This document shows, piece after piece, positions 1 through 62,115 of a stretch of 64,000 bases of DNA. This stretch comes from Acidobacteriota bacterium (GTDB taxonomy: Bacteria > Acidobacteriota > CAIWXX01), in contig JACPPM010000301.1 in assembly GCA_016191015.1 (NCBI GenBank), forward strand, positions 5,472-69,471. The letters are read 5' to 3'. Position numbers and translations under genes: made by a program. Position 1 is the stretch's first letter. Every line of letters starts with the position of its first letter. Below the pieces are notes generated by a model. That model was not told the origin of the DNA. It was given only the letters and a program-made list of their open reading frames with translations, and made no database searches.

Positions 1-239
1 AAAGCAAAAGTGAGCCGAAACGGCCCTCTCTGAAACAGAGGACCGAGGTGCTCGTGCGTGAGATGCTCGAGCGCGGCATCTACCTGGAGGAGGCAAAGAA
101 GGAGTTCGAGAAATCCTTCCTGTCGCTCGCCCTTGGCATGGCCTCGCAGAACCAGTGCAAGGCGGCCAAGATCCTGGGCCTCCACCGGAACACGCTTCGT
201 TCCAAACTTCGCCTCTTCGGGCTCGACCACAAGAAGTAG
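1..239 (+). CDS. C-terminal fragment of a sigma-54-dependent Fis-family transcriptional regulator (HTH_8 domain); 5' end lies outside the window
   Basis: Open frame from position 3 to TAG at 237-239. AAKILGLHRNTLRSKL is the Fis-type HTH typical of NtrC-family activators. Confidence 0.6.
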   Translation, partial: SKSEPKRPSLKQRTEVLVREMLERGIYLEEAKKEFEKSFLSLALGMASQNQCKAAKILGLHRNTLRSKLRLFGLDHKK

Positions 240-375
240 CCATTAGTCTTTAGCCCTTAGCCATTAGCTGAGGAACGGGATTCAGGTCATCGGCCGCGGC
301 AGACGGACCACGCCCGAGTGCTATTCGCGCCGGTGGGCCGTTCGGAGCTAGTAGCTAACGGCTAAGGGCTAGCAA
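239..375. repeat. Extragenic palindrome, TTAGCC-heptamer type (copy A). Left arm 239-271 overlaps the TAG stop; right arm 345-375; spacer about 73 bp
   Basis: Left arm agccattagtctttagcccttagccattagctg. The reverse complement of right arm gagctagtagctaacggctaagggctagcaa matches it with 1-2 mismatches. Period-7 NNNTTAG units. Confidence 0.8.
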
Positions 376-4387: not shown

Positions 4388-4454
4388 AACGCAAAGACGC
4401 AAAGCCACCAAGATCGGTCCAGAGCTTCTTTGCGGCTTTGCGCCTTTGCGTTTG
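4388..4454. repeat. Palindrome with CGCAAAG(N) octamer-repeat arms (copy K)
   Basis: caacgcaaagacgcaaagcc ... ctttgcggctttgcgcctttgcgtttg; arms are reverse complements; 20 bp spacer. Confidence 0.7.
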
Positions 4455-12100: not shown

Positions 12101-12856
12101 ATGGCACAGTTGAAGGTCCTGGTCGTCGAGGACAGCCCGACGCAACAACTCAAGACTCGTCTTCCCTTACTCAATGCGGGCTACGAAGTGGTCGTCGCGG
12201 CAAACGGCGAGGAGGGGTACCAGGCCGCGCTGGCAAACAAGCCGTCCGTGATCCTGCTCGACATGGTCATGCCCGTTTGTGACGGACCCGGCATGCTGGC
12301 CAAGATCAAGGACGCTCCCGAGCTCCGCGACATTCCCGTGATCATGCTGACGGCCACCTCCGAATCAGAATCCATCATGAATGCGATTTCGATGGGGGCG
12401 AAGGACTATATAGTCAAGCCATTCTCGATCGAGGTGTTTGAACAGAAGCTGACCAAGTTCTTCCGCCATCTCAACCCCAATCTGAGCCAGACCGAACGGA
12501 TCGCGGCCGAGATCGACCGGAAGATCATCCGATACGACGAGTACGAGGGGGCGCACTTGTTCGAGGTCAAACCGGACAATATGAAGCTCGGCCTCAAGTT
12601 GGTCTTCTCCTATATCCGGCGCTTCCTGGCCATCGGCGAGCGTAATTTCGTGATCGACTTCTCTTCGTACCCGTCGCTTCCGGATGAGGCGATGACTACG
12701 CTCGTGGCCTGCATGTCCTCGCTGCAGAAGGGATCTGAGATCGTTCGCTTCATCGTGACGAATCCCAAGGTCCAAGGGCAGCTCCAAAGCGCGCCGGACA
12801 CGGCCTACGTCGGGATTCTGCGAAGTCGGAAAGAAGTCGTGCGGCACGGCTTCTGA
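12101..12856 (+). CDS. Response-regulator receiver domain fused to a STAS (anti-sigma-antagonist-like) domain
   Basis: KVLVVEDS...ILLDMVMP...DYIVKPF is a REC domain. The C-terminal FVIDFSSYPSLPDEAMTTLV region is STAS-like. Alternative start at 12065. Confidence 0.7.
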   Translation: MAQLKVLVVEDSPTQQLKTRLPLLNAGYEVVVAANGEEGYQAALANKPSVILLDMVMPVCDGPGMLAKIKDAPELRDIPVIMLTATSESESIMNAISMGAKDYIVKPFSIEVFEQKLTKFFRHLNPNLSQTERIAAEIDRKIIRYDEYEGAHLFEVKPDNMKLGLKLVFSYIRRFLAIGERNFVIDFSSYPSLPDEAMTTLVACMSSLQKGSEIVRFIVTNPKVQGQLQSAPDTAYVGILRSRKEVVRHGF

Positions 12857-13027
12857 GTTCAAAGTTCAAAGTTCAATGCTCCACCCCGGAACGGCGGGCG
12901 CCGGTGTGGGCCTGAGCGCCGTCGGTCCCGTCGCATGAACATATTGCGGTCTGGGCACTCTCGCTTCACCCGAATCACCCGGGGCGCCTCCGGGTACTTT
13001 GAACTTTGAACTTTGAACTTTGAACTT
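12855..13027. repeat. Extragenic palindrome, GTTCAAA-heptamer type (copy B), filling the whole intergenic space
   Basis: Left arm gagttcaaagttcaaagttcaatg overlaps the TGA stop at 12854-12856. Right arm ctttgaactttgaactttgaacttc runs into the start of the next ORF. Spacer about 118 bp. Confidence 0.85.
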
Positions 13028-14801
13028 CTTGCACTATGTTATCGCGGTGACAGAGCACCAGATTCGGAGTGATGCGGAATTCATCCTGAGGGCGAGCAAG
13101 GTCCTCAACTCGACACTGGATTTCGATGAGCTGCTGACGCGGATTGTTGAGCTCACGGCCGAGGCGGTCGGTGCCGAGACCGGTTCGCTCCTTCTCTACG
13201 ACGAACGGCGCGGCGGACTGATCTTCGAGGTCGCGTTGGGTGAGAAGGGGGATCTGATCAAGGAGTTCGTCGTCGGGCCGGGCCAAGGAGTGACGGGAAG
13301 GGTGTTCGAGACCGGAGAGCCTGCGGTCGTCAACGACACTCAGTCGTACGCCGCGTTCTCGGGGACGATCGACAAGAAGGTGGGGTTCGAGACCCGTTCG
13401 ATCCTTTGCGTTCCTCTCCTGCTGCGCGGAAGGACGATCGGCGTGGTCGAAGCGATCAACAAATCGCGGGCCCGGCTTTTCGACGATCAGGATCTGCGGA
13501 TGATGCGATCTCTCGCGGACCTCATCGCCATCGCGATCGACAACAGCCGACTGTACTTGCAGGCCAGGTTGGAGAGGCTCGAGAACCAGTCGCTTCTGGA
13601 AGTGGCCAAGCGGGTCAACTCGGCCCTGAAGCTCGACCAGGTCCTCCAGATGATCGCCGACTCGATGCATCAGGTCATCCACTTCGACGCGCTGGCCATC
13701 TACCTGGTCAGACCAGGCACACGGGACATAGACCGCCTCATCCTGAACGGCTTCGACGAGCACCAGCACGATTCTGTGAGGCTGAAGGTGGGAGAAGGGA
13801 TCGTGGGGTGGTGCATCAGCAATGGCGAGTCCACTCTCGTGGCCGATGTTTCCCGCGACCCACGATACGTGAAGGCGCGCGACGAGACGCGTTCAGAGAT
13901 TGTCGCGGCTCTGTTTGTCGGGGGCCGCTGCATCGGTGCGATCAACCTCGAGAGCAACCGCATGTCCGCCTGGGATCAGCACCAGCTCGAGCTGCTCCGC
14001 GCATTTGCCGGACAGGTGTCTATCGCGATCGAGAAGGCGATGCTGCACCAGGAGCTCCTCGAGAAGAAGGAGCTCGAGCAGGAGCTCAACGTGGCCCACC
14101 GCATCCAGCGCACGTTCCTGCCGCGTCACCAGCCCGTCATCCCTGGCTACGATGTCGCCGGCCTGAACATCCCATCCGAGAAAGTCGGCGGTGACTACTA
14201 CGATTTCATCCGGATCATCGACACACAGCTCGGAATCGTGATCTCCGACGTCTCCGGAAAGGGGATCCCGGCCGCGCTGATCATGGCGAGCTTCAGGGCG
14301 AGCCTGTTGGCCGAAATCCGGAACAACTTCGCCATCCGCACGATCATGGCCAAGGTCGGGAAGCTTCTGCGGGAGTCCATTGAGCCACACCACTTCGTGA
14401 CGGCTCTGTACGGAGTCCTCGACATCCCCAACCGTGTTTTCACTTACGCAAACGCGGGGCACAACCCGGCAATCCTCATCCGCGCAGATGCGAGTGTCAA
14501 GTTCCTCAAAGACGGCGGCCTGCCCCTCTGCGTCCTCGAACAAGCCACCTACGCTGAAAAGCGCTTGCAACTGCGGGTCGGAGACCTCCTCGTGTTCTAC
14601 ACCGACGGAGTGACCGAGGCGTTCAACGAGCAGGAGGAGGAGTTCGGGCTCGAACGCCTCATCGCGGCTCTCCTGGCCGTCTACCCTCTGAGCGCTCGAG
14701 ACATCGTGGGGAGTGTCGCACAGGTCATCAGGGAATTCAACGGTACCGCTAGCCCCTCCGATGACCTCACTCTCGTAGCCCTCAAGTGCGTCCCCATTTG
14801 A
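13020..14801 (+). CDS. GAF-GAF-PP2C (SpoIIE/RsbU-like) serine phosphatase
   Basis: Two GAF domains (LLYDERRGGLIF...; ...IGAINLES...) followed by a PP2C domain (GGDYYDF...ISDVSGKG...YTDG). Start is uncertain: TTG 13020 lies inside the repeat, and GTG 13050 is possible. Confidence 0.85.
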   Translation: MNFLHYVIAVTEHQIRSDAEFILRASKVLNSTLDFDELLTRIVELTAEAVGAETGSLLLYDERRGGLIFEVALGEKGDLIKEFVVGPGQGVTGRVFETGEPAVVNDTQSYAAFSGTIDKKVGFETRSILCVPLLLRGRTIGVVEAINKSRARLFDDQDLRMMRSLADLIAIAIDNSRLYLQARLERLENQSLLEVAKRVNSALKLDQVLQMIADSMHQVIHFDALAIYLVRPGTRDIDRLILNGFDEHQHDSVRLKVGEGIVGWCISNGESTLVADVSRDPRYVKARDETRSEIVAALFVGGRCIGAINLESNRMSAWDQHQLELLRAFAGQVSIAIEKAMLHQELLEKKELEQELNVAHRIQRTFLPRHQPVIPGYDVAGLNIPSEKVGGDYYDFIRIIDTQLGIVISDVSGKGIPAALIMASFRASLLAEIRNNFAIRTIMAKVGKLLRESIEPHHFVTALYGVLDIPNRVFTYANAGHNPAILIRADASVKFLKDGGLPLCVLEQATYAEKRLQLRVGDLLVFYTDGVTEAFNEQEEEFGLERLIAALLAVYPLSARDIVGSVAQVIREFNGTASPSDDLTLVALKCVPI

Positions 14802-14999
14802 GGGACTAGGGGCTAGGGACTAGGGTCCGGACCGATCTTGGCGCGGATCGGACACCACGTGGGTGCGACGCTTGCCTGACCCCCGGTGGGGTGGCTTCTT
14901 GATGGTCCGGAGATCGGTTCAATCCTTCACGGTGCTGACAATCTCTTGTCAAGGTCTCGGCGCTGTGGGCGTAGTCCCCAGCCCCTAGCCCCTAGCGCC
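14802..14999. repeat. Extragenic palindrome, CTAGCCC-heptamer type (copy C)
   Basis: Left arm gggactaggggctagggactagggtcc begins 1 bp after the TGA stop. Right arm gtagtccccagcccctagcccctagcgcc. About 142 bp spacer that holds a perfect TGACAA-N4-TTGTCA palindrome. Confidence 0.85.
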
Positions 15000-15280
15000 T
15001 ACTTTTCATTCTGGCAGCCGGCACGGGCGTTATAGGAATGTATGCCTGTGCGGACGGGTCTGGAGAATTGACGAACCCCTCGTTGCCACGCATCGTGAAG
15101 GCCAGGACTTTTGGCTCTCTGGCGGGAGCTGGGTCTTCAGCCGCGGGCTCGGCGTGCCCCACAGAGATTCCGAAGCGCATACAGAGCACCACAGAAGACG
15201 CGCTCCCTCAGAGAGATCATGAGAGGGGCGATTCCGGTATTCCAATCAACTTATCCCATGGGGAGAGGAGACCAGGCGAG

Positions 15281-15994
15281 ATGAAGAAGTGGTTTGGGGC
15301 CACGTTCCTGGCCGTGATGGTCGGGGGGACGGCGTCGGCCGCGGTCCGGTTCGTGCCGATGGAGGAGATCGCGGCCGAGGCGGACACGGGAGTCGTCGGG
15401 CGGGTTGTTGACAAGTATTGTGCGTGGGACAACGAGCACAAGATGATCTGGACTCACTACATCGTGGACCAGATGCAGCACGTATTCGGCAAAGACGTTG
15501 AGGCCCGGTTCGAGCTCAACTTCGCCGGCGGCACGGTTGACGGCAAGACGATGATTGTCACCGAGACGCCGGAGCCCGAGATCGGTCAGGAGTACGTTTT
15601 CTTCGTGTACGACGCCACGAAGAAGTTCTCGGCGGCGACAGTCGGGCACTTCCAGGGCCTTTTCAAGATTGTCCGGAACCCGCAGACCGGCTTCACGCAG
15701 CTCGTCAACGGCGAAAACCGGCTCGTGGGTGGAGACGAAGATGGCCGGATCATTGCCGGCCCCGGCGTGACCGTGGATGCAGACAACCACATTCATCTCG
15801 CCCCGCTCAGCAGGGAGGAAGCCGGCACGCCTGAAGCCGAGCCGGTCATCCGCGACTATCGCGGCCAGATCGTCCCGGAGGGCGCGCGCGCCATCGCCGA
15901 TGCGCCAGGAGAGAAGCCCCTGGCCCCGATCGACGCCGACGCGTTCATTGACTATATGCGCGATCTGCGCGCACGCATCCGCGGTGAGAAGTAG
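15281..15994 (+). CDS. Secreted hypothetical protein, co-transcribed partner of the downstream metzincin
   Basis: Signal peptide MKKWFGATFLAVMVGGTASAA with a GGAGA SD. Stop lies 9 bp before the metalloprotease start. Confidence 0.6.
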   Translation: MKKWFGATFLAVMVGGTASAAVRFVPMEEIAAEADTGVVGRVVDKYCAWDNEHKMIWTHYIVDQMQHVFGKDVEARFELNFAGGTVDGKTMIVTETPEPEIGQEYVFFVYDATKKFSAATVGHFQGLFKIVRNPQTGFTQLVNGENRLVGGDEDGRIIAGPGVTVDADNHIHLAPLSREEAGTPEAEPVIRDYRGQIVPEGARAIADAPGEKPLAPIDADAFIDYMRDLRARIRGEK

Positions 15995-16003
15995 GAGGGC
16001 GCG

Positions 16004-17491
16004 ATGAAGAAAACACTCGTTTCCCTGGTTCTCCTTCTCATCGCGGTTTCCCCAGCTCTGGCCCAGAACAGCGCCGACTGGCACGGGTGCTGGTGCGGCG
16101 GCTATTCGACCTCGCCCAAGACAGTGTACTGCTACGAGGGCTCCGGGTTCTCCGGCGGCTGCACGTCGCAGATCAACTACTGGAACACCCACGCGGGGGT
16201 GTTCAGCCTGGGAGCCAACCTGAGCGCGATCGGTGCCCCGGGCAACGGCAAGAGTGAAGTCAACTGCCCGATCACGACATCGCAGGCAAGCAGCGTATAC
16301 GGATACTCGATGCAGTCGTCTCTGTACGGTGTCGCCTTGATGGAGCCTTCCTCAGCCTTCGGGAACTTCAACGAGTGCGAGTCGATCGGTTCACCGAACG
16401 GCCAGCCCTCCGGCCAAGGATGCACCACCTGGACGCAGGCTGACGTGCTCATCAACGCCAGCTTCTCGTCGGGCTGGACTACCTCGTACACCGCCTATGA
16501 CGGCAAGGCCGTCGTCGCCACGACCGTGCTCCACGAAGTGGGTCACACCCTCGGCTTCCATCACGTCTTCCAGCACTTCTCGACAATGAACTACATGGAA
16601 GACGACAGCGGATGGTTCGTGACGCGGATCGACGCCAATTCCGTGCGCGACCATTATCCGACGGTCGCCAAGAGCGTGACCGACGCGGCCGTGTATCCGT
16701 TCAAGTACGGGTCGAGCCAGTACGCCGAGACCTACGCCACCTTTTCGCCGACCTCCGTCGCGGCGGGCGGCACCGTGTCGGTATCGAACCTGCGAGTGGA
16801 GAACGTCGGCAACGCGTCGAGCCTTTCGAACGTTGTGGTGACCTTCTACCTCTCCACCGACAGCAGCATCACCACCTCGGACACGGCGATCGGGACCATG
16901 AGCTGGTCCTCGTTCTCGACCTGGTGGGAGTCATCCTCGGCCATCAATCTGACGGTTCCGACTGGCACAACGGCGGGCACGTACTACATCGGTGGAATCG
17001 TGACCGTGAACGGGTCACAGGATTCCGTAAGCCTCAACAATTCCTTCGTGGTCCGCACCCGTAGCGGCTCGTCGGGAACCCCCCGCGCGCTCACGGTTTC
17101 CACGGGCGGCGGCGGCGGCGGCGGCACGACGATGAACGAAACCGAGTCGAATAACTCGCGGACATACGCCAACGTCGTTTCGACCTCCGGCACACAGGTC
17201 ACCGGCTATATCAGCAGCTCGAGCGACGTCGACTACTTCAAGGTGACGATTCCGGGGAAGAAAACGCTCTCGGTGGCTGTCACGGTCCCGGCGACGACCT
17301 CGATCGACTACGACGTCCGCCTCTACAACAGCAGCGGCTCTTACCTGACGGGCTCGGAGCAGGATGCCGGCATCAACGAGGCCTTCACCTACTACAACTC
17401 ATCCAGCTCCTCACGGGTGTACTACATCAAGGTCTATCGCTACACGGGGTACTCGACGACCCTGCCCTATGTGATGACCGTGAGCTGGTAG
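16004..17491 (+). CDS. Secreted zinc metalloprotease (metzincin, HExxHxxGxxH) with a C-terminal PPC/pre-peptidase-like domain
   Basis: Signal peptide; HEVGHTLGFHH motif; Ser/Thr-rich linker; a poly-Gly stretch encoded by (GGC)7; C-terminal beta-domain. Confidence 0.85.
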   Translation: MKKTLVSLVLLLIAVSPALAQNSADWHGCWCGGYSTSPKTVYCYEGSGFSGGCTSQINYWNTHAGVFSLGANLSAIGAPGNGKSEVNCPITTSQASSVYGYSMQSSLYGVALMEPSSAFGNFNECESIGSPNGQPSGQGCTTWTQADVLINASFSSGWTTSYTAYDGKAVVATTVLHEVGHTLGFHHVFQHFSTMNYMEDDSGWFVTRIDANSVRDHYPTVAKSVTDAAVYPFKYGSSQYAETYATFSPTSVAAGGTVSVSNLRVENVGNASSLSNVVVTFYLSTDSSITTSDTAIGTMSWSSFSTWWESSSAINLTVPTGTTAGTYYIGGIVTVNGSQDSVSLNNSFVVRTRSGSSGTPRALTVSTGGGGGGGTTMNETESNNSRTYANVVSTSGTQVTGYISSSSDVDYFKVTIPGKKTLSVAVTVPATTSIDYDVRLYNSSGSYLTGSEQDAGINEAFTYYNSSSSSRVYYIKVYRYTGYSTTLPYVMTVSW

Positions 17492-17511
17492 CTCAGAGTC
17501 TCGCACCGACG

Positions 17512-17546
17512 AGGGGAGCCTGGTTCCCGCCAAGCTCCCCTTTTTC
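17512..17546 (+). terminator. Rho-independent terminator downstream of the metalloprotease
   Basis: gaggggagcctggttcccgccaagctcccc followed by ttttt. Confidence 0.6.
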
Positions 17547-17658
17547 GTCTTCGGACGGACGCGCCGCAGCGATCGTACCCCCAGACATGCATGGACACGG
17601 GCAATGATGCCGGGTACTATCTTCTCGAAGCCGGCGATTTGGGCAAGGGAGCGATCTG

Positions 17659-20600
17659 GTGCTACTGCGCGCTGCGAAAGTCTTCTGTCTCCTCTTCTTG
17701 GTCTTCATCGGCACGCCCTGCTGGGGGCTCGATCCGTCGAAGGCCTTGACACAGTACCGGCATGATGTCTGGCAGACCCGCGACGGGCTGCCCCAGAGCA
17801 GCGTCGAGTCGATGGTGCAGACCCGGACCGGGTATCTGTGGCTCGGCACGCAGGAGGGGCTCGCTCGTTTCGATGGCGTTCGATTCGCGGTGTATGACAA
17901 GAGCAACACCAAGGCCATTCGGCACAATCGCATCCTCGCTCTCCTCGAGGACCGCCGAGGGTCACTCTGGATTGGAACGGAAGGCGGAGGCCTTGTCGAG
18001 CTCAGCGACGGGCTTTTCCGCAACTTCTCCAAGAGTGAGGGGTTGCCCGACGAGCGCGTATTAGCGCTGGCGGAGGATCATGATGGCAGGCTCTGGGTGG
18101 GCACCGGCAGCGGGCTTGCGTGCTACCGGGACGGTACGGTCGACGCGGGAAGGAGCGTGCCGGAGCTCATCGGCACGCCCATCGAGTCGCTGGCGGTCGC
18201 CGCAAATGGGAAGCTCTGGATCGGCACGGCAGGACGTGGGCTCTTTCGTTACGATCATGCGCAGGTCGAGCGGGTGGGGCCCGATGGAGAGGCTCAGAGC
18301 ACGGTCGCCAAGGTCTTCTGCGACGCGGACGGGAGCGTCTGGTTCGCCTCGAATGCGCGTCTCTATCGCCTCCAAGAGGGACCGAGCGCGCGGGTTGATG
18401 AGCAGTCGTGGGCCCGCTGGGGGAGCATCGGCGAAATCTACCGGGACCGCCAAGGCTCTCTCTGGGTTGGAACCGACGCCGGCGTTGTGAGGTTTCGGGA
18501 TGGTCGTGTGGAGTCCTACTCGGTCAAGGACGGTCTCTCCAACGACGTCATCCACTGCATTCTCGAAGACCACGAAGGCAGCCTCTGGATCGGTACGATG
18601 GACGGCGGCTTGAACAGATTCGCAGACGGTGCCTTCACGACGTACTCGACGGCTGAAGGGCTCTCCCACGACATCGTCAGTCCGATCTATCAGGATCGGG
18701 AAGGGCGCATCTGGATCGGGACGCGCGGAGGCGGCGTCAACTGCTATGCACGCGAGGGATTCACGACCTACACAGCGAGGGACGGGCTGGCCGACGACTT
18801 CGTCCAAGCCATCGTCCAGGATCGCGAGGGGACACTGTGGTTCGGCACGAAACGCGGCGGCCTTTGCAGCCTCCGCGAAGGCAGGTTCAAAACCTACACC
18901 GATCGCGACGGTCTTCCGATCGCATCCGTGCGCGCGCTCTTCGAGGATCGGCGCGGCGATCTTTGGGTTGGGACTCTGAACCACGGCCTCGCCCGATTTC
19001 GGGACGGCGGATTCCAGTTGTTCACGACGAAGGACGGCCTGACCAACAACACCGTCTTTTTCATCCTCGAAGACCATGAGGGTACCGTCTGGTTCGCCAC
19101 CAACGGCGGCGGTCTCAACTACTACCGCGACGGCCGATTCGGCGCGATCACGACGAAAGAGGGTCTCTCGATCGACATCGTCAACACACTCCATGAAGAC
19201 GCCGCCGGCACACTGTGGATCGGAACATATGGCGGCGGGCTCAACCGGCTGACGCACGGGCGCCTGTCCTCCTACACGACCCGCGAGGGTCTTTTCGATG
19301 ATGCCGTCTTCCGAATCCTCGAGGACGGCAGCGGCAATCTCTGGATCTCGTGCAACAAAGGAATCTACCGCATCGCGAAGCATCAGTTCGATGAGCTGGA
19401 TCGGGGCGGGAGGCGTTTGCTCGAACCCGCCGCGTTTGGCGTCGTTGACGGGATGAAAAACCGTGAATGCAACGGTGCCGATCAGCCGACCGGCTGGAAG
19501 ATGCGCGACGGGACGCTCTGGTTCCCGACCATCCAAGGTGCCGTGATGGTCGACCCCGCGCATCTGCCCACGAACACGCTTCCCCCGGCGGTTGTCATCG
19601 AGGAGCTGCGCGTGGACGACCGCGTTGCCGGCATCGCCGCAACCCCGGAAATCCCTCCCGGGGCTCAGAGGGTCGACATCCAGTACGCGGGGCTGAGCTT
19701 CCGGGTGCCGGCGAGGGTTCGTTTCCGCTACAAACTCGAAGGGTTCGACGGCGACTGGGTCGATGCGGGCGCACGGCGGACTGCCTACTACACGCGCCTG
19801 CCACCGGGCTCATACCGGTTTCGCGTTCAGGCCTGCAACGATAGTGGTGTCTGGAACACGGTCGGTGCCACGCTCGGCCTCGTGATCATTCCCCACATCT
19901 ATCAGAGGCCGTTATTCTACTTCGCGCTCATGGCGGTCGCTGCCATCCTCGTGATTTCTATCCATCGCCTACGGGTACAGCGGCTGAAGAGACGCGAACG
20001 AGAGCTCGTCGAGATCGTTGAACAGCGAACGCAGAGTCTGCGGCTGGAGATGGAGAGGACCGCCCGGGCGCTCCGCGAGGCGGAGGAGCAGCGGGAAATC
20101 GCACATGCGGCCAAGACCGAGGCCGAAGCGGCCAACCGGATCAAGAGCTGGTTTGTGGCGAACACGAGCCATGAGCTGCGCACGCCGATCAACTCGGTCC
20201 TCGGCTATAGCGAGATGCTGATAGAGGAGGCCGAGGAGAGCGGGAATCTCGTCGCCATCCCTGACCTGAGAAAGATCCACGCCGCCGGGCGACATCTTCT
20301 CGGGTTGATCAACGACATCCTGGACCTTTCGAAGATCGAGGCCGGCAAGCTGGACCTGCAACTCGACACTTTTGACCTGGGCGCGTTGGTCGAAGAGGTC
20401 GCTGCGAGTGTGCGGCCGCTCATCGAGAAAAACGGCAACGCGCTTGCCGCCGATGGAACTGATGTGGCCGGATCGATCTGCGCCGACCCCGCTCGCGCCC
20501 GCCAGATCCTGTTGAACCTCTTGAGCAACGCGGCGAAGTTCACGCGTGACGGGGAGGTGCGTCTCGAGGTGAGGCGCGAGACGGATCGCGTGTTGATGCG

Positions 20601-20871
20601 TGTCATCGATACGGGCATTGGAATGACGTCCGATCAAATCGCGCGGCTCTTCCAGGCGTACACTCAAGCTGGCGCAGATACGAGCCGCAAGTACGGCGGC
20701 ACCGGCCTCGGGCTCGTCATCAGCAGGCGTCTCGCCCAAATGATGGGCGGCGAGATCTCGGTGGAAAGCGCGCCGGGCAAAGGCTCCACGTTCACCCTGA
20801 CGCTCCCGGCGCGAACACCGGCGGGCGAAAAGGAGGATCGCGGTGGCTCGAGGATGGCCGCTGCACAGTAG
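17659..20871 (+). CDS. Hybrid sensor histidine kinase with periplasmic two-component-regulator propeller repeats and a Y_Y_Y domain, one TM segment, HisKA and HATPase_c
   Basis: About 14 Reg_prop repeats (GxLWIGTxxGGL); a TM helix near aa 750; H-box [10 protein letters not shown]; a G-box ATPase domain. Confidence 0.85.
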
Positions 20872-21065
20872 TCCACACTAGTCCGGAGGCGCACCGCCGC
20901 GCACGCAGGTCCCATCCTCACTACCACCAAGTCACCATGGCACCAAGAAACTACCAAGGGGTTTCTCTCCCTCATTCGTGCCCCTTGATGTCTTCGTGGT
21001 CCGGACGTCAGCTCCGGCATCCAGACGGTTGAGATGACCTGGGCCAGGAATGAGCGAGAAGGCAC

Positions 21066-22328
21066 CTATTGGCCGGGCCTGAGCACCTGGCGTATCGCGT
21101 CCAGCCGGGTCGTCCCTTCAGAGTGAGTGGGCACGATCCAACCCCCTTCCGAGAGCTCGTTCCACGCATACATGATGATCGTGCTGGCCTCAGCGGATGC
21201 AGGATTGCCCCTGATCCACTGTACGCCTTCGCCCAGGTGCGTCGCTATCTGCTCGGCGGTCGCGTACTCCACAACAGGGCCTGAGGTATACCCGCCATAT
21301 CCCCAGACATCATCCCGATGCGGTCTCGGATCCCAGCCGGCGCTCACGGTAGGGATCGCTTTGAGTCCCGCATCTCGAAAGCTATTCCACAGTGCGCTGT
21401 CTGCCTGCGCCAAGGCATCATAGGGGAACCAAGTATAGTTGTCCGGGTCCTCGTAGCCCCCGGGAATCGGGCTCGTATAGGACGTCACCGCATTCACACC
21501 GAGCTCCGCGACAGCCCGTTCCCCCTCATCGGCTGACCAGACCAACGCGGCGATGTACGGGTTCTTCATCCCGGCGCGTCGCGCCTTCTTGCGAAAATCG
21601 TCCAACATCTGCCGCAGCTTCCGCCAACTGCCCAAGATCTTTTCCGGATCTTCTCCCGCCAGCCAGAAGAACACGAGTGGCCTGCGTCTCATGACCCTCT
21701 GGTAGGACGGTTCCTGCATCTGGCCTATTGCCTCCTGCACTTCGAAGTCCCAGTTGTGCTGGCCGAAGTAGTAGTCACCGGACCCCGGCATCCCCATCAT
21801 CAGCGAAAACTTCACCTTGGACTTGAGCTGGCTGGAGAGGTAGTACTTCCGACTGCGGTTCATGTCCTCTGCCTTCCACCCGTTTGTGGGGTCGACCAGC
21901 GGATTGCCTTGTGGGTCCCGAAGGACGTACATGTTGAAGATCCAGAAATCGATGCCACCCGCGGCCGCATACGCGATCTCCTGATCCATGACCTCCTGAG
22001 AATCGGAGAAGGCCTCGAGCTGTCCGTCCGCGAGCGTCCTGGCATAGAAGGGATGGCGGTAGCGCCACTCATCGGGTGCCAGGACTGAAACGTACGGAGA
22101 GCCGCGGTACCAACCGTCCCAGCGGATCGCCCCCACAAGAGCGTTTCCCTTCTTCACCGGTACACCTGCGTGGCGGGGGGCGGCGGTCTCGAGATGTGGA
22201 CAGCGGTCACCCGACCCGCTGCGATCCCGGGCCACGCTAGCCGATGCATGCCCGCTCGCGAAGACGGGCTCGATGGGCGGCGCGAAGGCGATCGCGATTG
22301 AGAGCGAGAGTGGGGCGCAGGGTTTCAT
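21066..22328 (-). CDS. Secreted glycoside-hydrolase-like protein (family not assignable by eye)
   Basis: Signal peptide MKPCAPLSLSIAIAFA with a GGAGG SD. Trp/Tyr-rich TIM-barrel-like composition. Start trimmed from 22937 to 22328. A paralogous C-terminal remnant lies at 27230-27484. Confidence 0.65.
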   Translation of the reverse strand: MKPCAPLSLSIAIAFAPPIEPVFASGHASASVARDRSGSGDRCPHLETAAPRHAGVPVKKGNALVGAIRWDGWYRGSPYVSVLAPDEWRYRHPFYARTLADGQLEAFSDSQEVMDQEIAYAAAGGIDFWIFNMYVLRDPQGNPLVDPTNGWKAEDMNRSRKYYLSSQLKSKVKFSLMMGMPGSGDYYFGQHNWDFEVQEAIGQMQEPSYQRVMRRRPLVFFWLAGEDPEKILGSWRKLRQMLDDFRKKARRAGMKNPYIAALVWSADEGERAVAELGVNAVTSYTSPIPGGYEDPDNYTWFPYDALAQADSALWNSFRDAGLKAIPTVSAGWDPRPHRDDVWGYGGYTSGPVVEYATAEQIATHLGEGVQWIRGNPASAEASTIIMYAWNELSEGGWIVPTHSEGTTRLDAIRQVLRPGQ

Positions 22329-26872: not shown

Positions 26873-26901
26873 CAACGCAAAGGCGCAAAGACGCAAAGAA
26901 G
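26873..26901. repeat. Single-arm CGCAAAG(N) octamer repeat array, 7 bp after the radical-SAM gene stop
   Basis: caacgcaaaggcgcaaagacgcaaagaag; no inverted partner found nearby. Confidence 0.6.
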
Positions 26902-27229
26902 AAAAGCGGATTCCTGCGAGATGGCGGGCGGCAGAGGCCGTGTTCGTCGTCCGCTTGTGGGGGCGTGACGTTTTTTGCACCGTGCGGCCGACCGGCTTGC
27001 TTCCCGATTGAGAGTCGCAGCTCACCGCAGAGCGGTGGGAGTCGACGGGGCGATCGACGCGACGCTCAACGGGACCGAGGCAGACAGGGACATACCGGCA
27101 CGGTTACTCCGTCCAGCATGGCAAAGTCACCGCGCGGCCGCGCCGCGATCGACGCCGACGACACGACCGACACCTTCGCCGAGGGACGCGCCGCCGGCCA
27201 TCAGCTCCAGGCGCTCGTGGCATGTCCGA

Positions 27230-32908: not shown

Positions 32909-32917
32909 CGATGAATC

Positions 32918-33019
32918 AGAGTTCAAAGTTCAAAGTTCCAAGTTCAAGCCCGCGTCGATCCTGTGGGCGTGGACCTGCGGGTCCCGTTGAGCTCTGAACT
33001 TTGAACTTTGAACTCATGC
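32918..33019. repeat. Extragenic palindrome, GTTCAAA-heptamer type (copy D)
   Basis: agagttcaaagttcaaagttccaagttcaag ... ctgaactttgaactttgaactcatgc; begins 10 bp after the mqnD stop and ends 31 bp before the pyk start. Confidence 0.85.
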
Positions 33020-37485: not shown

Positions 37486-37517
37486 CCGGCCCTAGCCCCT
37501 AGCCCCCAGCCCCTCTC
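37486..37517. repeat. Single-arm CTAGCCC heptamer array abutting the dapF stop (copy E)
   Basis: ccggccctagcccctagcccccagcccctctc lies immediately 3' of the dapF TGA on the minus strand. Confidence 0.7.
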
Positions 37518-38372
37518 TCAAGAGGGATCGGGCCATGCGCCGTCGAACACGATCTCGGCCGGGCCTGTGACGAAGAGTGGCTCGCCCTGGTGCCACTCGA
37601 CCAGCATGTCCCCGCCCGCCGCGTGGATCGTCACGCTCTCCCCCACAAGTCCCTGGACCATCGCGGCCGTGGCGGCAGCGGATGCTCCTGTCCCGGATGA
37701 GAGCGTCTCCCCCGCGCCGCGCTCCCAAAAGACCACGATCATCTCCTCCTTGTTCAGCACCTGGACGAACTCCACATTCGTTTTGTTCGGGAACAAGGGA
37801 TGGTTTTCGACGACGGGTCCCAGGTCGCGAACTGGGATTCCCTCGAGGGATTCGAAAAACAGAACGCAGTGTGGGTTGCCCATCGAAACGGCCGTGATGG
37901 GGAGGCTGGAATTCCCGATTGGCAGAGGGAAATTCACGACCCGATCAGTCCCATCGGGGGACTTGAAGGGGATCGAATCCGGTGCGAGGACCGGATTTCC
38001 CATGTCGGCGATGAACGAGTACCGATGGGCGTGATGGCTGAGAAGCTCCAGCTGGCACCAGCCGCTCTGCGTAGTGATCTCCACCTTCGGTGTCTTGACG
38101 AGACCGCGGTGGAAAAGGAAGGCGGCGCAGCAGCGAAGTCCATTGCCTGAGGTCTCGGCTTCCGTGCCGTCACTGTTGAAGATCCTCAGGAAGTAGGCTC
38201 CGCGCTTCGTCACATGCGGGAAGATCAAGAGCATCCCGTCAGCACCGACGCCGTAGTGCCGGTTGCAGATCTTCAGGGACATATCGGAGAAGGAATCGGT
38301 CTGAGCGGGGACGTCCTTCTCTTCGACGATGATGAAATCGTTCCCGAGTCCCTGGGCCTTGGTGAACTTCAT
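37518..38372 (-). CDS. dapF: Diaminopimelate epimerase
   Basis: MKFTKAQGLGNDFIIVE N-terminus and a second active-site Cys region. Confidence 0.9.
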   Translation of the reverse strand: MKFTKAQGLGNDFIIVEEKDVPAQTDSFSDMSLKICNRHYGVGADGMLLIFPHVTKRGAYFLRIFNSDGTEAETSGNGLRCCAAFLFHRGLVKTPKVEITTQSGWCQLELLSHHAHRYSFIADMGNPVLAPDSIPFKSPDGTDRVVNFPLPIGNSSLPITAVSMGNPHCVLFFESLEGIPVRDLGPVVENHPLFPNKTNVEFVQVLNKEEMIVVFWERGAGETLSSGTGASAAATAAMVQGLVGESVTIHAAGGDMLVEWHQGEPLFVTGPAEIVFDGAWPDPS

Positions 38373-42824: not shown

Positions 42825-43547
42825 ATGGCCGAGAGCGCGACCGCCGTCTACAAACGGATCCTCCTAAAACTGTCCGGCGAGGCGCTGATCGGGGAGAGAG
42901 GCTACGGCATCGATTCTGCGATGACACAGTCGATCGCGGGAGAGATCCGCGAGGTCAGGGAGCTCGGCACCGAGGTTGCGATCGTCATCGGCGGAGGCAA
43001 CATTTTTCGTGGCGTAGCCGCCACTGCGGCCGGCATGGAGCGCGTCGCGGGGGATCACATGGGCATGTTGGCGACGGTCATCAACGGTATCGCCCTCCAG
43101 GATGCGCTCGAGAAACAGAATGTCTTCACGCGCCTCATGACCGCCATCGAGATGCGCGAGGTCGCGGAACCCTACATCAGAAGACGCGCGGTGAGACACC
43201 TCGAAAAGGGCCGTGTGGTCATTCTCGCGGGCGGCACGGGCAATCCGTATTTCACGACCGATACTGCCGCGGCGCTGCGCGCGATGGAGATCAAGGCTGA
43301 AGCGATCCTGAAGGCGACCCGAGTTGATGGCGTCTACACGGCCGATCCGAAGCTCGACAAGACTGCAATGAAGATCGACCAGATCAGCCATCTCGATGTC
43401 CTCAAGCGAGGGCTAAAGGTCATGGATGCCACCGCCATCTCGCTTTGTATGGACAACCAACTCCCCATTCGTGTCTTCGATCTGCGGGTTCGAGGGAACA
43501 TTCTCAGAATCGTGCGCGGCGAGCCGATCGGCTCGTCAGTGTCTTGA
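42825..43547 (+). CDS. pyrH: UMP kinase
   Basis: [12 protein letters not shown]...GGGNIFRG. Confidence 0.95.
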
Positions 43548-43548
43548 T

Positions 43549-43668
43549 CAGCCATTAGCCCTTAGCTCCGGACCGGACTTGCGCGTGAGCACGAAATAGA
43601 TGGCGGGCGAACACATGTTGCGCCTCTGCGCTAAAGGATAACGGCTACGGGCTAATCGCTGACGGCTG
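43549..43668. repeat. Extragenic palindrome, TTAGCC type (copy F), 2 bp after the pyrH stop
   Basis: cagccattagcccttagctccgg ... taacggctacgggctaatcgctgacggctg. Confidence 0.8.
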
Positions 43669-44305: not shown

Positions 44306-44455
44306 CTGGCAGCCGTTAGCCCGAAGCGTCTGGTTCGGAGACTCTGGGCGAACGGATACGGGCTCTGCTGGCATTCCCGCTGCAGCGAGAGGGCCGCCGT
44401 TACAGGTCCGGTCCGGAGCTAATAGCTAACGGCTGATAGCTAATGGCTAACCAGC
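44306..44455. repeat. Extragenic palindrome, TTAGCC type (copy G), 3 bp after the frr stop
   Basis: ctggcagccgttagcccgaagc ... ggagctaatagctaacggctgatagctaatggctaaccagc. The right arm overlaps the 3' end of the convergent gene. Confidence 0.8.
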
Positions 44456-54408: not shown

Positions 54409-54575
54409 GTGGAGCGTAGAGCGTGGAGCGTGGAGCGTGGAGCATGCAGGTAGTGGCGAAGCAGGGTCGTGCACGATGACGGATGCCTACAGGGATCAGG
54501 AACCCGAATCGTCTGGTCCGGCCTAGCCCCTAGCCCCTAGTCCCTGGTCCCTAGTCCCAAGTCCCTAGCCCCTGG
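54409..54575. repeat. Composite array: (GGAGCGT)x5 at 54409-54448, then (CTAGYCC)x7 at 54522-54575 abutting the stop of the upstream minus-strand gene (copy H)
   Basis: ggtggagcgtagagcgtggagcgtggagcgtggagc ... tccggcctagcccctagcccctagtccctggtccctagtcccaagtccctagcccctgg. Confidence 0.8.
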
Positions 54576-54579: not shown

Positions 54580-56190
54580 TCACGCGAATCGTTTGTTCGT
54601 CACGAAATCGGACATCAACGATGCGAGCTGGACGGGTCTGTCGGTCTTGACGGGAAACCCGATCTTGACCTCCTCCGCCTCCAAAACCACACTCATACGT
54701 GGCCTCGCCATCTCCCCCTGTTTCTCGCCGATCGTGATCGACAGATTTCGGATCTGGGGGTAGGTCATCTTCCGGTTCACCGAACCATTCGAGAAGACGA
54801 GGGATTTCTCGGTGACAAAGAAGGACCCGGCGACCTTGCTGTCCCGCAGTTCGAGCTCGGCCCGTTCCCCCCACCACAGCCGGGGCGCAACAGATCCCAT
54901 GTAGACCGTGCCTTCCCCTCGCAGCAACGGGAAGCGGCGGGTGACCTTCTCCGGCACGCGGGTGATTCCCAGCTTGCGCAACCCCTCCTCGAACTCGCGA
55001 TCCACGATCACCTGCCTGCCAGGCAGGGGATATCCACAGTGGAAGCACCCCGAGCTTTCGGCGGGATTGCGGCGCTGACATCGAGGGCATGATTGGAAGA
55101 CGAGGAATCCGCAGAAGGCGCATCGCGCGCTGGGGCTGCCGACATGCTGGCAGGAGGGGCACTGAACCTGTTCCTGCTCGATCTGCTTCTCGGTCTTGTT
55201 GCCGAGCGATTGTCCGCACTGGGGGCAGCTCTCATCGGTCGCCTTCACCCGCTTGCCGCAGCCGGAGCACTGATACGTTCGGCGCTTGTGGCCCTTCGAT
55301 TCCATGAAATTGAAATAGTGAAAAAGCTCGCCGCTCCTCGTCATGTCGTTCGTCGCTTGCGACACCTCACCGAAATCGATCTTCTGACTCCGCAAGCTAT
55401 GACCGACAAGCAGTGAGAGGTCGGCGATCGAGCAGATCACGCGCGGGACCCCCTGGCTGAACCGGTGAATGCCTTCGATCGCCGTGGCTGTGAAGACCTC
55501 CCGATCGAGCTGCCCTGCTGCACGGACGCGGTACTTGATGAGGTCGCCGGTGTCACGCAGATCGAGGTTCTTGAGGAAGAACCGGACGGGTAGCCGCTGC
55601 CAGAATTCAGGCATCTTCTTGACCGCGCCTTCCAGCGGCTTCTGTCCAGAAAAGACGAAGGAGAGCAGGAAGGTATCGGAGACACAGAAGTTGAGGAGGA
55701 TCCGGAGCTCCTGCAGGATGTCGGGTTTGTGGACCAGCATCTGGCCTTCATCGACGATGACCAGCGCTTTCGTGCCGGCGTGATGCAGCTCTTCGAGCTT
55801 CACCCTGAGAGCATTCAGGTTGTCGATCTTCTCTTTGCGGACGCGAGCGACCCCGAGCTGTCTGGCGATCTCCGCGATCATCTGATTGACGGTGAGGGTC
55901 GGGTGATCGATGAAGGCGATCTTGATGTTCCCTTCGTACTCCTCGGTCAACTCCTCTACAAGTCTGCGCAGGATCGATGTCTTCCCATCCCCGGCGTTTT
56001 CCGAGATCAGAAGTACTCCACCCTTGTTCGACACCACGCCATACTTGAGGCGCATCAGCGCCTCCTGGTGCTGAGCGCTGAGGAACAGCATGTCCGGGTC
56101 CGGGGAGAGCGAAAAGGGGTGCCGGGCAAACCCCCAGTAAGAGAGGTACTCTGGGACCATTATCCGTTCCAAAAAAGCAAGCCACGGCAT
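54580..56190 (-). CDS. ExeA/GspA-like AAA ATPase fused to three zinc-ribbon modules and a C-terminal PH-like domain
   Basis: YWGFARHPFSLSPDPDMLFLSAQHQEALMRL plus the Walker A GDGKTS is the ExeA signature. Three CxxC...CxxC ribbons. The C-terminal domain of about 150 aa is unassigned. Confidence 0.7.
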   Translation of the reverse strand: MPWLAFLERIMVPEYLSYWGFARHPFSLSPDPDMLFLSAQHQEALMRLKYGVVSNKGGVLLISENAGDGKTSILRRLVEELTEEYEGNIKIAFIDHPTLTVNQMIAEIARQLGVARVRKEKIDNLNALRVKLEELHHAGTKALVIVDEGQMLVHKPDILQELRILLNFCVSDTFLLSFVFSGQKPLEGAVKKMPEFWQRLPVRFFLKNLDLRDTGDLIKYRVRAAGQLDREVFTATAIEGIHRFSQGVPRVICSIADLSLLVGHSLRSQKIDFGEVSQATNDMTRSGELFHYFNFMESKGHKRRTYQCSGCGKRVKATDESCPQCGQSLGNKTEKQIEQEQVQCPSCQHVGSPSARCAFCGFLVFQSCPRCQRRNPAESSGCFHCGYPLPGRQVIVDREFEEGLRKLGITRVPEKVTRRFPLLRGEGTVYMGSVAPRLWWGERAELELRDSKVAGSFFVTEKSLVFSNGSVNRKMTYPQIRNLSITIGEKQGEMARPRMSVVLEAEEVKIGFPVKTDRPVQLASLMSDFVTNKRFA

Positions 56191-59863: not shown

Positions 59864-59867
59864 CTTT

Positions 59868-59920
59868 TGGAACTTTGAACTTTGAACTTTGAACTTTGAA
59901 CTTTGAACTTTGAACTCATC
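59868..59920. repeat. (TTTGAAC)x7 single-arm array between the TetR and ADH genes (copy I)
   Basis: ttggaactttgaac... x7, ending in aactcatcatgc; shares its tail with copy D. Confidence 0.85.
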
Positions 59921-60994: not shown

Positions 60995-61957
60995 ATGACA
61001 TATTTCGAACCCAAATCCCCCGGAGAATTCGGATTCAAGGACATCATCTATGAGAAGAAGGACGGTGTGGCGCGCGTCACGATCAACCGTCCCAAGTTTT
61101 ACAACGCCTATTCCTCGCTGGCGCTCGAGGAGATGACGAAGGCCTTCACGGACGCGTCATGGGACGACTCGATTGCGGTCGTTGTGTTGACGGGCGCAGG
61201 GGACAAGGCCTTCTGCACCGGTGGCGACGTGAAGGAGTACGCGACCAGCTACACGCGCCGGCCGCACGACTACTGGAAATGGATGGGACTGTTCAATGGG
61301 GCACACGATGTGCTGCGCAACATCGGCAAGCCGACGATTGCCCGGTTGAATGGAATGGTGGTTGGAGGCGGCAACGAATTCAACATGGCCTGCGATCTGG
61401 CAGTGGCGGCCGAGCACGTCGTGATTCGGCAGGTGGGTCCGCGGGTGGGCTCGGTCCCGGCCGGGGGTGCCACCCAGTGGCTCCCGATCATGGTCGGCGA
61501 TCGGCGCGCGCGTTGGATGCTCTACATGTGCGAAGAGCTCGATGCAACGACCGCGCTCGACTGGGGTCTCGTCAACTTCGTCGTTCCTCTGGACAAGCTG
61601 GATGAGAAGGTCAACGAGATCTGCGAAAAGCTGAAGGACAAGTTTCCCGAGTGCCTTCGCTATACCAAGCAGCAGACGAACTTCTGGAAGGATCTTTCCT
61701 GGCACACAACGATTGGTCACGCACGCGATTGGCTGTCGCTGCACTATCTCTCGGCCGAGGTGCACGAGGGGATGAACTCATTCGTCGAGAAGCGCCAACC
61801 GGACTATCGCGGGATGCGGCAGAAGGCCGCTGAAGGGAAGAGTAGCGAGTACGTCTGGGGGCCATACGCGAAGGTTTGCGGGAAATGCGGGGCGAAATAC
61901 ATTCCGGAGGACTTCAAGTTCTGCGGAGCGTGTGGGGAGGCGTTGGGGAGCAGTTAG
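60995..61957 (+). CDS. MenB/BadI-family crotonase (1,4-dihydroxy-2-naphthoyl-CoA-synthase-like) with a C-terminal CxxC...CxxC zinc ribbon
   Basis: DIIYEKKDGVARVTINRP, LTGAGDKAFCTGGD and EGMNSFVEKRQPDY track MenB closely. Extra tail CGKCGAKYIPEDFKFCGACG. Confidence 0.75.
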   Translation: MTYFEPKSPGEFGFKDIIYEKKDGVARVTINRPKFYNAYSSLALEEMTKAFTDASWDDSIAVVVLTGAGDKAFCTGGDVKEYATSYTRRPHDYWKWMGLFNGAHDVLRNIGKPTIARLNGMVVGGGNEFNMACDLAVAAEHVVIRQVGPRVGSVPAGGATQWLPIMVGDRRARWMLYMCEELDATTALDWGLVNFVVPLDKLDEKVNEICEKLKDKFPECLRYTKQQTNFWKDLSWHTTIGHARDWLSLHYLSAEVHEGMNSFVEKRQPDYRGMRQKAAEGKSSEYVWGPYAKVCGKCGAKYIPEDFKFCGACGEALGSS

Positions 61958-62115
61958 CAATTAGCCCTTTGCCGTTAGCTATTAGCTTCGAGCGGTCGTC
62001 CCCGTCTGAATGCCGGTCGCCGGCCGCTGGGAGCGTCGGCGCCGGGATGGTGCTCATCACACCCATGACCCGGGGACAACCGCACGGAGCTAATGGCTGA
62101 ACGCGAACGGCTACT
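61951..62115. repeat. Extragenic palindrome, TTAGCC type (copy J), between convergent genes
   Basis: cagttagcaattagccctttgccgttagctattagcttc ... ggagctaatggctgaacgcgaacggctac. The left arm contains the crotonase TAG stop and the right arm contains the acs stop. Confidence 0.8.

Follow-up and report, generated by a model that had tools for sequence, protein, structure and literature searches.

The window analysed here is a stretch of 64,000 nucleotides from an Acidobacteriota metagenome-assembled genome (MAG), namely positions 5,472 to 69,471 of contig JACPPM010000301.1 (GenBank assembly GCA_016191015.1), read on the forward strand. At positions 14802-14999 of the window there is an inverted-repeat element, here called C. 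It fills the interval between the stop codon of a gene for a GAF-GAF-SpoIIE (RsbU-like) protein phosphatase and a promoter-like block that precedes the gene of a 237-aa protein. C consists of two convergent heptamer microsatellite arrays located where a gene ends, and it belongs to a genome-wide population of such arrays with slippage-like turnover. The features described below are collected in Table 1.

Arms, spacer and dyad of element C

The arms of C are inverted and enclose a spacer of 142 bp. The left arm (14802-14828) is gggactaggggctagggactagggtcc, also written GGGACTAGGGGCTAGGGACTAGGGTCC, and the right arm (14971-14999) is gtagtccccagcccctagcccctagcgcc, also written GTAGTCCCCAGCCCCTAGCCCCTAGCGCC. 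The pairing between them is far above chance, with a best register in the repeat finder of 22 nt at 91% complementarity and an alternative of 25 nt at 84%. An initial annotation, made from the letters alone, had described both arms, the spacer, a perfect palindrome inside it and a nested dyad (GGACCGATC at 14829-37 with GATCGGTTC at 14912-20), and all of these were found where it had placed them.

Each arm is a head-to-tail array of a 7-nt unit. Tandem Repeats Finder (TRF) gave a period of 7 on both sides, with 3.6 copies in the left array (14801-14825) and 4.3 copies in the right one (14972-15001). After the stop codon the sense strand shows the unit GGGRCTA, whose complement is found 145 nt downstream. 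The first base of the left array coincides with the final base of the phosphatase gene's TGA (14799-14801), which is a gap of -1 to the stop. The 15-mer CTAGCCCCTAGCCCC, allowing up to 3 mismatches, had 17 matches in comparison with 1.4 expected. No second copy of the spacer was found in the window or in the fetched loci. The search of the whole window against Rfam returned no family at gathering score; in 14600-15400 the sole match was RAGATH-31, at chance level (E = 2.8) and within a coding region. tRNA and tmRNA genes were searched and none was found.

Orthologous loci were recovered by means of the phosphatase, the 237-aa protein and frr. One relative, represented by L008 and L035, has about 92% nucleotide identity to the window, and the one represented by L009 and L036 about 75%; L010/L037, L011 and L032 have 58-80% amino-acid identity over the marker proteins used. 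The window DNA itself was 100% identical in two Logan assemblies, which are two samples of one population. A scan of genome contigs with the phosphatase protein as query gave only relatives of at most 34% identity from other phyla, which is uninformative for synteny.

The perfect dyad TGACAA-TCTC-TTGTCA in the spacer had been read in the initial annotation as the operator of a dimeric regulator and as a -35 hexamer on either strand, inside a repeated element. Besides being perfect over 6+6 positions, it offers TTGTCA, which agrees with TTGACA at 5 of 6 positions. However, 24.7% of the dinucleotide-shuffled spacers contained one or more perfect 6+6 dyads with loops of 0-8 nt, and the window contains 262 of them, about 0.6 per 146 nt. 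The sequence TGACAAN4TTGTCA occurred a single time in the 64 kb even when one mismatch was allowed. There was no -10 hexamer at 16-18 nt from TTGTCA on either strand, and the scan for sigma-70-like promoters on both strands of 14600-15400 detected none. The dyad was present in no recovered relative: it is deleted in L008 and absent in L010 and L032, and the surrounding spacer is absent or unalignable at every orthologous locus. The lack of further occurrences and of spacer conservation were the two outcomes that the initial annotation itself had named as speaking against its reading, and as far as the sequence goes both were observed. Considering also that the conserved block described next sits outside C, an operator or -35 box appears extremely improbable, and the dyad seems to have arisen incidentally in a spacer that evolves neutrally.

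That block (15002-15044) begins one base after the right arm. In the alignment of the window with L010 and L032, both array-less, it is kept upstream of the orthologous gene of the 237-aa protein, and it is probably the promoter or a regulatory site of this gene, without a match to the sigma-70 consensus. In the global alignment of the whole intergenic region around C with L010 no homology was found in the spacer, and only the promoter-like block and the ribosome-binding site could be aligned. A sequence resembling the block, ACTTTTCAnnCTGGC, follows the right arm of an array pair at the non-orthologous metagenome locus L020.

Table 1. Positions of element C, of the other arrays and of the neighbouring features in the window
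Feature	Positions	Strand	Description
Upstream gene	13020..14801	+	GAF-GAF-SpoIIE (RsbU-like) protein phosphatase, 593 aa; TGA stop 14799-14801
C left array	14801..14827	+	(A)GGGACT AGGGGCT AGGGACT AGGG; sense strand G-rich; four G-tracts
Junction motif TCCGGACCGATCTTGG	14826..14841	+	Adjoins C left array
C spacer	14829..14970	+	142 bp; unique sequence; not conserved in relatives; unremarkable structure by itself
Perfect dyad TGACAA-TCTC-TTGTCA (TGACAATCTCTTGTCA)	14936..14951		Chance level; no support as regulatory site
C right array	14972..15001	+	TAGTCCC CAGCCCC TAGCCCC TAGCGCC TA; complement of left-arm unit; inverted-repeat pairs I1-I3
Promoter-like block	15002..15044	+	CTTTTCAT-N18-CGTTATAGGAATGTA; outside C, marks C right boundary
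Downstream gene	15281..15994	+	237-aa protein, no Pfam family
Next gene	16004-17491	+	495-aa metalloprotease-like protein
A	237..375	+	TTAGCC-type inverted pair; stop codon within first unit
B	4389..4450		ACGCAAAG octamer inverted pair, 23-nt loop; sole array pair away from a stop codon
T1	12856..13027	+	(TCAAAGT)n/(ACTTTGA)n inverted pair; fills response-regulator stop to phosphatase start
O	26876..26906	+	Lone ACGCAAAG octamer array, 10 nt past stop codon
T2	32916..33014	+	TCAAAGT-type inverted pair, perfect 20-bp stem
E	37488..37515	-	GGGGCTA-type array, 2 nt past stop of gene 37518..38372 (-); G-rich on its sense strand
F	43547..43668	+	TTAGCC-type inverted pair, pyrH stop to frr promoter
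G	44310..44450	-	TTAGCC-type inverted pair between convergent genes
H	54409..54575	-	(GGGRCTA)7 array, 4 nt past stop of gene 54580..56190
T3	59867..59916	+	Lone (GAACTTT)6.7 array filling 65-nt intergenic gap
I	61955..62115	+	TTAGCC-type inverted pair between convergent genes; stop codon within first unit
Intrinsic terminator, canonical	17512-17541	+	GC-rich stem and T-run; array-free gene end, after metalloprotease-like gene
Intrinsic terminator, canonical	49546-49575	+	GC-rich stem and T-run; array-free gene end
Intrinsic terminator, canonical	50137-50162	-	GC-rich stem and T-run; array-free gene end
Intrinsic terminator, canonical	57455-57477	-	GC-rich stem and T-run; array-free gene end

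Array families across the window

Arrays of period 7 or 8 were found in 13 intergenic regions of the window, and they belong to four or five unit families. GGGRCTA/CTAGCCC is present at C, E and H; TTAGCC(C) at A, F, G and I; TCAAAGT at T1, T2 and T3; the octamer ACGCAAAG at B and O; and GTGGAGC on the right side of H with a trace in E. There were 14 period-7 arrays versus 1.5 in shuffles, and 7 period-8 arrays versus 1.7. Eight regions are clear inverted pairs, whose spacers range from 23 to about 145 nt.

In 12 of the 13 regions an array lies between -4 and +10 nt from a stop codon, and often the stop is inside the first unit. The flanking genes are co-directional in 10 regions, convergent in 3 and divergent in none, and all the listed arrays (21/21) are outside open reading frames (ORFs) or at their very edge. 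In the convergent pairs G and I each arm adjoins one of the two stops. It is also noted that the strand of a unit family tracks the direction of the gene and not that of the chromosome, for genes on both strands. The sense strand is G-rich after C, which follows a gene on the plus strand, and after E and H, which follow genes on the minus strand, with gaps to the stop of -1, 2 and 4 nt, respectively. F and G both have TTAGCC on the sense side, that is, the C-rich strand is found there, and their arms are 90% identical over 32 nt. About 70 nt downstream of the (GGGRCTA)7 array of H there is a non-complementary (GCTCCAC)5 array.

No tetranucleotide was more under-represented in the window than CTAG, which has 37 copies where a Markov model predicts 75 and base composition 225. 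The heptamer arrays, about 0.5% of the sequence, hold 14 of these 37 copies. An array was also seen in a 166-bp segment (20896-21061) located between the convergent genes of a histidine kinase and of a 622-aa protein. This segment, missing in L008, has imperfect direct repeats (GGC(G)CACC) on its flanks and contains two GTCCGGA sites besides the octamer array, which is of the CACCAAG type.

A short junction motif accompanies many of the arrays. As the initial annotation had pointed out, E and H start with a common TCCGGCC(C)TAGCCCCTAGCCCC, and TCCGGACCG follows the left arm in both C (14826) and F (43567). The loop of hairpin B (4408-4423, minus strand) agrees with the longer form TCCGGACCGATCTTGG at 15 of 16 positions, and looser copies were seen after arrays in F (43567), G (44403, minus strand) and H. 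With up to 3 mismatches TCCGGACCGATCTTGG had 7 matches versus 1.4 expected; TCCGGACCGNNCTTG had 12 versus 3.4. The all-against-all comparison of the spacers showed that only array matches and this junction motif of 13-16 nt are common to different loci.

From these similarities the CTAGCCC and TTAGCC types had been regarded as variants of one element, and part of this idea can be maintained. Both types have the same layout, in which a stop-flush array is followed by a unique spacer and a complementary array, and both share the junction TCCGGACCG..CTTG (12 matches versus 3.4 expected). Between pyrH and frr, a TTAGCCC-type left arm in the window (43547-43568) corresponds to a CTAGCCC-type arm in L035 (24-37), each being followed by the same TCCGGACCGGA core, which indicates that the types interconvert by an array-wide change of one base. 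The spacers, on the other hand, are unrelated. Rather than being copies of one element, the two types are variants within one class of heptamer microsatellites.

Arrays of this unit were also found outside this genome. The pattern (CTAGGGN)2CTAGG followed by CCGGA was present in 20 metagenome contigs, 17 of them distinct; in about 12 an ORF with high GC at third codon positions ends at or in the array, and in 7 a C-rich partner lies 9-130 nt downstream. Since the pattern demanded CCGGA, these 20 contigs cannot test the junction, and the motif is non-random only within this genome. In a viral collection 41 contigs with GC contents from 28% to 73% carried the array without the CCGGA junction, so that in this unbiased scan the junction was not a general trait of GGGNCTA arrays (0/41). 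Other heptamer or octamer arrays adjoin the GGGRCTA arrays in the contigs L013, L016, L024, L025, L045 and L057. In L050 (IMG/VR UViG 3300009873_000032), at about 6990-7060, octamers ACGCAAAG/GCGGCAAAG, of the family to which B and O belong, are located beside a GGGRCTA array. The neighbouring arrays in other contigs point to a repertoire of units shared across organisms.

This recurrence is what could be expected if the arrays were iterated sites of 7-8 nt for a protein that reads RNA or DNA (CsrA-, Csp- or S1-like, or a nucleoid protein) and defined a regulon of gene ends. Few units recur at unlinked loci, at the orthologous sites of relatives (GTGGAGC in L009) and in unrelated contigs (the octamer beside GGGACTA in L050), and their polarity tracks transcription; the same function was proposed for TAACTGA repeats (MacGregor 2015, PMC4679880). 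However, four or five unrelated units would require several binders, the units mutate freely (A, G or T at position 4, CTAG to TTAG) and no candidate protein was identified. We consider a binding array to have a slight probability.

As for the neighbouring genes, homologues of the phosphatase carry PF13185/PF01590/PF13492/PF07228, and its C-terminus, ...DDLTLVALKCVPI*, agrees with that of the relatives. Its gene is preceded by one for a response regulator with a receiver domain and an unassigned C-terminal half (both genes within 12104-14801), and only hairpin T1 lies between them. The two form a partner-switching-like pair that is conserved in L009. The 237-aa protein is identical to the product of HYX75_22785, from an 'Acidobacteria bacterium' MAG at NCBI.

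Turnover in relatives and possible role of the arrays

The comparison with the relatives showed how these arrays change. The T1 right arm is (ACTTTGA)4.6 in the window (12996-13027) and (ACTTTAA)4.6 in L008 (1-32), with the same G-to-A change in every unit. In L009 there is a GTAGAGC-type pair at the T1 site and no intergenic region behind the phosphatase gene. The F spacer has 85% identity and four indels between the window and L035, and the third codon positions of frr are 81% identical. At C itself, the sole close relative is L008 (1814-2330), which has two deletions with respect to the window (14810-16267 and 16701-17400). They remove the gene of the 237-aa protein and gut the metalloprotease-like gene, and one heptamer remains after the stop; the left deletion has its junction either within the left arm's first heptamers or at a CCGATC microhomology. 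No arrays were found between pyrH and frr in L036, nor at the sites compared in L010/L037, L011 and L032. The density of arrays was 3.3 per 10 kb in the window versus 0-1.5 in the more distant relatives.

Variation of microsatellite type between close relatives was thus observed at T1, F and G. The sequences compared indicate that the arrays behave as microsatellites at vertically inherited sites, while the enclosed spacer drifts at an approximately neutral rate. Given that arrays change their unit wholesale, shift copies and get deleted, and that the spacer is near neutral, C belongs to the dispersed intergenic heptamer repeats, which include the short tandemly repeated repetitive (STRR) sequences and the G-rich repeats of Xanthomonas and Nostoc (GGGNATC / GGGGAYT). 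Tandem units of 7 nt, recurrence, non-coding placement, a G-rich strand close to the stop and microsatellite variation were all found, and we hold this assignment with high confidence.

The surroundings of the arrays were also compared. The frr promoter (TTGTCC-18-TAGAAT, extended TG, 43689-43718) is kept in L035, L036 and L037, and F ends 20 nt upstream of it. The genes flanking T2, of the VitK2_biosynth family and of pyruvate kinase, overlap by 4 nt in L009 (9697-9700); consequently T2 sits inside an operon and is a large structured insert within a pair that elsewhere is translationally coupled. Several contigs of the relatives start within arrays of this kind, which means that assemblies break at them. 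The gene content between phosphatase and pyruvate kinase varies: L011 has no genes there, L010 two, L009 a ubiA-mqn block and the window about 18 kb (14802-33050). The variable block of the window is bounded by the array pairs C on the left and T2 on the right. Array pairs may mark or promote indels of gene blocks.

[quoted passage not shown] The similarity between the arms of F and G, the resemblance by eye of the spacers of L012 and L027, which are non-orthologous loci, and the contigs broken within arrays would agree with it. Against it, there is no target-site duplication at C or A; at C the flanks ...CCATTTGA of the left arm and TACTTTTC of the right arm show no direct repeat. The spacers of the window are unrelated to one another, F has been inherited vertically and its spacer has a homologue in L035, core genes like pyrH and frr have arrays between them, and single arms and non-complementary pairs occur. 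This explanation was already disfavoured and we judge it very unlikely. A mobile cassette formed by F, frr and G, with terminal inverted repeats of 32 nt, was rejected as well, given that the cargo frr and its neighbour pyrH are core genes whose synteny is kept in L036 and L037. Among 16 window proteins compared with Pfam there was no transposase; no search was aimed at the REP-associated tyrosine transposases (RAYTs; REP, repetitive extragenic palindromic).

A simpler possibility is that the arrays are neutral or selfish microsatellites, by-products of replication slippage and ectopic conversion that are tolerated only where they are harmless, in the interval from a stop codon to the promoter that follows, the hairpin being incidental and the arrays functionless. 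The quick turnover, loss and replacement of units among relatives are in favour of it, and so are the spacer, which evolves at about the synonymous rate, and the drop of array density in distant relatives. Moreover, a 7-nt unit cannot expand in genes without a frameshift, from which alone the non-coding bias would follow. However, tolerance does not predict stop-flush arrays in 12 of 13 regions, nor a choice of strand that tracks transcription on both DNA strands, nor the pairing of complementary arrays, nor the repeated use of one small set of units both at unlinked loci and in further contigs. We regard a purely neutral origin as possible but rather unlikely.

To evaluate the structure of the transcript, RNA folding was calculated. 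The full element C gave -99.6 kcal/mol (z = -2.9) with its arms paired, and the spacer alone z = -0.9; the duplex between the arms adds about -30 kcal/mol. Among the sister elements, z was -7.75 for T2, -5.7 for B, -2.5 for G and -1.4 for F. At the equivalent sites of array-less relatives no unusual fold was found (z = -0.26, -0.40 and +1.15). These sites show ordinary structure, and the idea that the array hairpins are enlarged ancestral 3' hairpins was not supported.

The left array of C has the G-tracts G3N4G4N3G3N4G3, a canonical G-quadruplex (G4) motif, and the candidate G4 sequence is GGGACTAGGGGCTAGGGACTAGGG. For the isolated left arm, ViennaRNA with its G-quadruplex option gave -9.1 kcal/mol with the G4 versus -7.3 without it. 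The sense-strand G-rich array after the stop could then act as an RNA or non-template DNA G4 that modulates termination, ribosome release or mRNA decay, and the C-rich partner would merely tune it by competing for pairing. C, E and H have at least 4 sense-strand G-tracts within 0-4 nt of the stop. Similar repeats prefer four units, lie close to the stop on the coding strand and form G4 according to circular dichroism (CD) spectroscopy (Rehm et al. 2015, PMC4692102). In contrast, the TCAAAGT, ACGCAAAG and GTGGAGC families share the layout without G4 potential, TTAGCCC-type arrays put the C-rich strand on the sense side, and in the modelled full transcript, with the right arm present, the duplex outweighs the G4 by about 20 kcal/mol. 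G4 formation as the main function, with or without tuning by the partner, seems improbable. Considering that several unit families adopt one layout, the common denominator would be position and pairing, and not G4 chemistry alone.

Other functions at the gene end were examined. The scan for intrinsic terminators in 14600-15400 found none, and C was discarded as an intrinsic terminator on account of its loop of 145 nt, instead of the 3-8 nt usual in such compact stems, and of its only T-run (CTTTTC), which belongs to the conserved downstream block. Considering that canonical terminators are present at other gene ends (Table 1), the array pairs are not simply the version of a terminator that this organism uses. 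The arrays could also be thought of as stops in three frames; this is true for the units with CTAG or TTAG and fails for sense-strand TCAAAGT, ACGCAAAG and GTGGAGC.

With regard to the mechanism, we tentatively propose that C acts as a 3' stem, which is suggested by its position, polarity and predicted folding. The phosphatase gene would be transcribed past its stop codon and the G-rich left array would fold first, possibly as an RNA G4. The C-rich right array would then pair with it, forming an imperfect stem of about 22-25 bp around the whole spacer. This bulky 3' stem might act in the manner of REP elements and bacterial interspersed mosaic elements (BIMEs), as a barrier to 3'-5' exonucleases; alternatively or additionally it might be a partial boundary for transcription or processing between neighbouring cistrons. 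The base of the stem adjoins the stop codon, so that a ribosome terminating there may open the structure. While we give this 3' stem somewhat less than an even chance, the class assignment and the mechanism taken jointly appear to us a reasonably probable account.

Several points weigh against the 3' stem. The suggested role at the RNA level comes from position, polarity and modelled folding. Behind the stem there is only CUUUUC, a tract of the conserved downstream block, and the terminator scan was empty, while ordinary intrinsic terminators are used elsewhere in the window, at 17512, 49546, 50137(-) and 57455(-). Given that E, H, O and T3 have no complementary partner, the hairpin is not the whole story, and G4 formation cannot be general since the TCAAAGT families are AT-rich and without G4. 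The loss or replacement of arrays in close relatives without obvious consequence fits a weak function or none. Finally, local slippage leaves unexplained both the recurrence of few units at unlinked loci and the TCCGGACCG junction motif.

A more speculative possibility, to which we give little credence, is that the array hairpins are the products and working parts of an undescribed system, spread over a lineage of Acidobacteriota. A small repertoire of 7-8-nt units together with the TCCGGACCG-type core would be installed flush with stop codons and work as a switch coupled to the termination of translation. On terminating, the ribosome would melt either the G4 or the stem's base and in this way determine how far the downstream RNA is read through, processed or degraded. 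If true, such a system would account for the recurrence of units at unlinked loci, for the gene blocks between array pairs that differ among relatives and for the concentration in arrays of the otherwise avoided CTAG.

Comparison with known repeat systems

The best functional analogy for the proposed stem would be with REP elements, BIMEs and the paired REP sequences known as REPINs, all of Proteobacteria. REP elements are intergenic, often follow stop codons, occur as inverted pairs, form long RNA stems and shield the upstream mRNA from 3' exonucleases. According to Liang, Rudd and Deutscher, in 2015, a REP within about 15 nt of the stop reportedly lowers the translation of the upstream gene. 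A REP unit, which RAYT transposases mobilise, forms an imperfect palindrome by itself and has a conserved 5' GTAG. Each of the arms of C, unlike a REP/REPIN unit, is a tandem array and not a palindrome, and membership in REP/REPIN was rejected on this ground, since the arms are direct and not self-complementary.

In unit length and dispersion, C resembles the cyanobacterial STRR sequences, which were reportedly described by Mazel et al. in 1990 as several heptamer families per genome, tandem, intergenic and often adjacent. Multiple intergenic families of tandem heptamers are common to both, whereas the STRR units (CCCCAGT, TTGGTCA, CAACAGT) and the phylum are different. To our knowledge, the stop-flush arrangement in inverted pairs is not a defining feature of STRR.

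The literature search for the unit GGGGCTA/GGGACTA found no relevant paper. Intergenic arrays of TAACTGA have been described in Beggiatoaceae, Cyanobacteria and Bacteroidetes and were proposed to be post-transcriptional regulatory sites (MacGregor 2015, PMC4679880). Like the arrays described here, they are abundant intergenic heptamers whose position with respect to genes is fixed. They differ in that they are located just upstream of start codons and are nearly all direct, with one inverted set out of 170 (PMC4679880).

Of the known systems, the one nearest to C is that of the G-rich heptamers GGGAATC of Xanthomonas and GGGGAYT of Nostoc, which are dispersed and have a strong non-coding bias (Rehm et al. 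2015, PMC4692102). In these repeats aligned ORFs are preferred and divergent ones avoided, and the G-rich strand is the coding strand, at 0-50 bp from the stop, overlaps included. Four units are favoured and G4 formation was obtained in vitro. Each Xanthomonas genome has 70-75 convergent inverted pairs, and between close relatives the length and sequence of the repeats vary while the type of pair is preserved (PMC4692102). C is similar in its tandem GGG(G) heptamers, its proximity to the stop, its about four units and its convergent pairing. It is different in the unit, GGGRCTA, with the one-base variant TTAGCCC, and in the host, an Acidobacteriota MAG. Unlike in those repeats, families that are not G-rich (TCAAAGT, ACGCAAAG, GTGGAGC) occur with this layout alongside it in one genome, many arrays are followed by a TCCGGACCG-type junction, and the TTAGCCC-type arrays, as well as the CTAGCCC arm of L035, have the opposite strand polarity.

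C is therefore a new unit in a new phylum within a known kind of repeat. For annotation, this means that inverted arms of this sort should not be taken for transposon ends, nor dyads in their fast-evolving spacers for operators. As a single locus C is of modest interest, and of somewhat more as a clean case of a genome-wide architecture. The layout in the window is unusually clean, with stop-flush arrays, complementary arms that reach up to the next promoter and several families in one layout. Dispersed heptamer repeats of the STRR and Xanthomonas type, which were already described decades ago, are now seen in a third, unrelated phylum.

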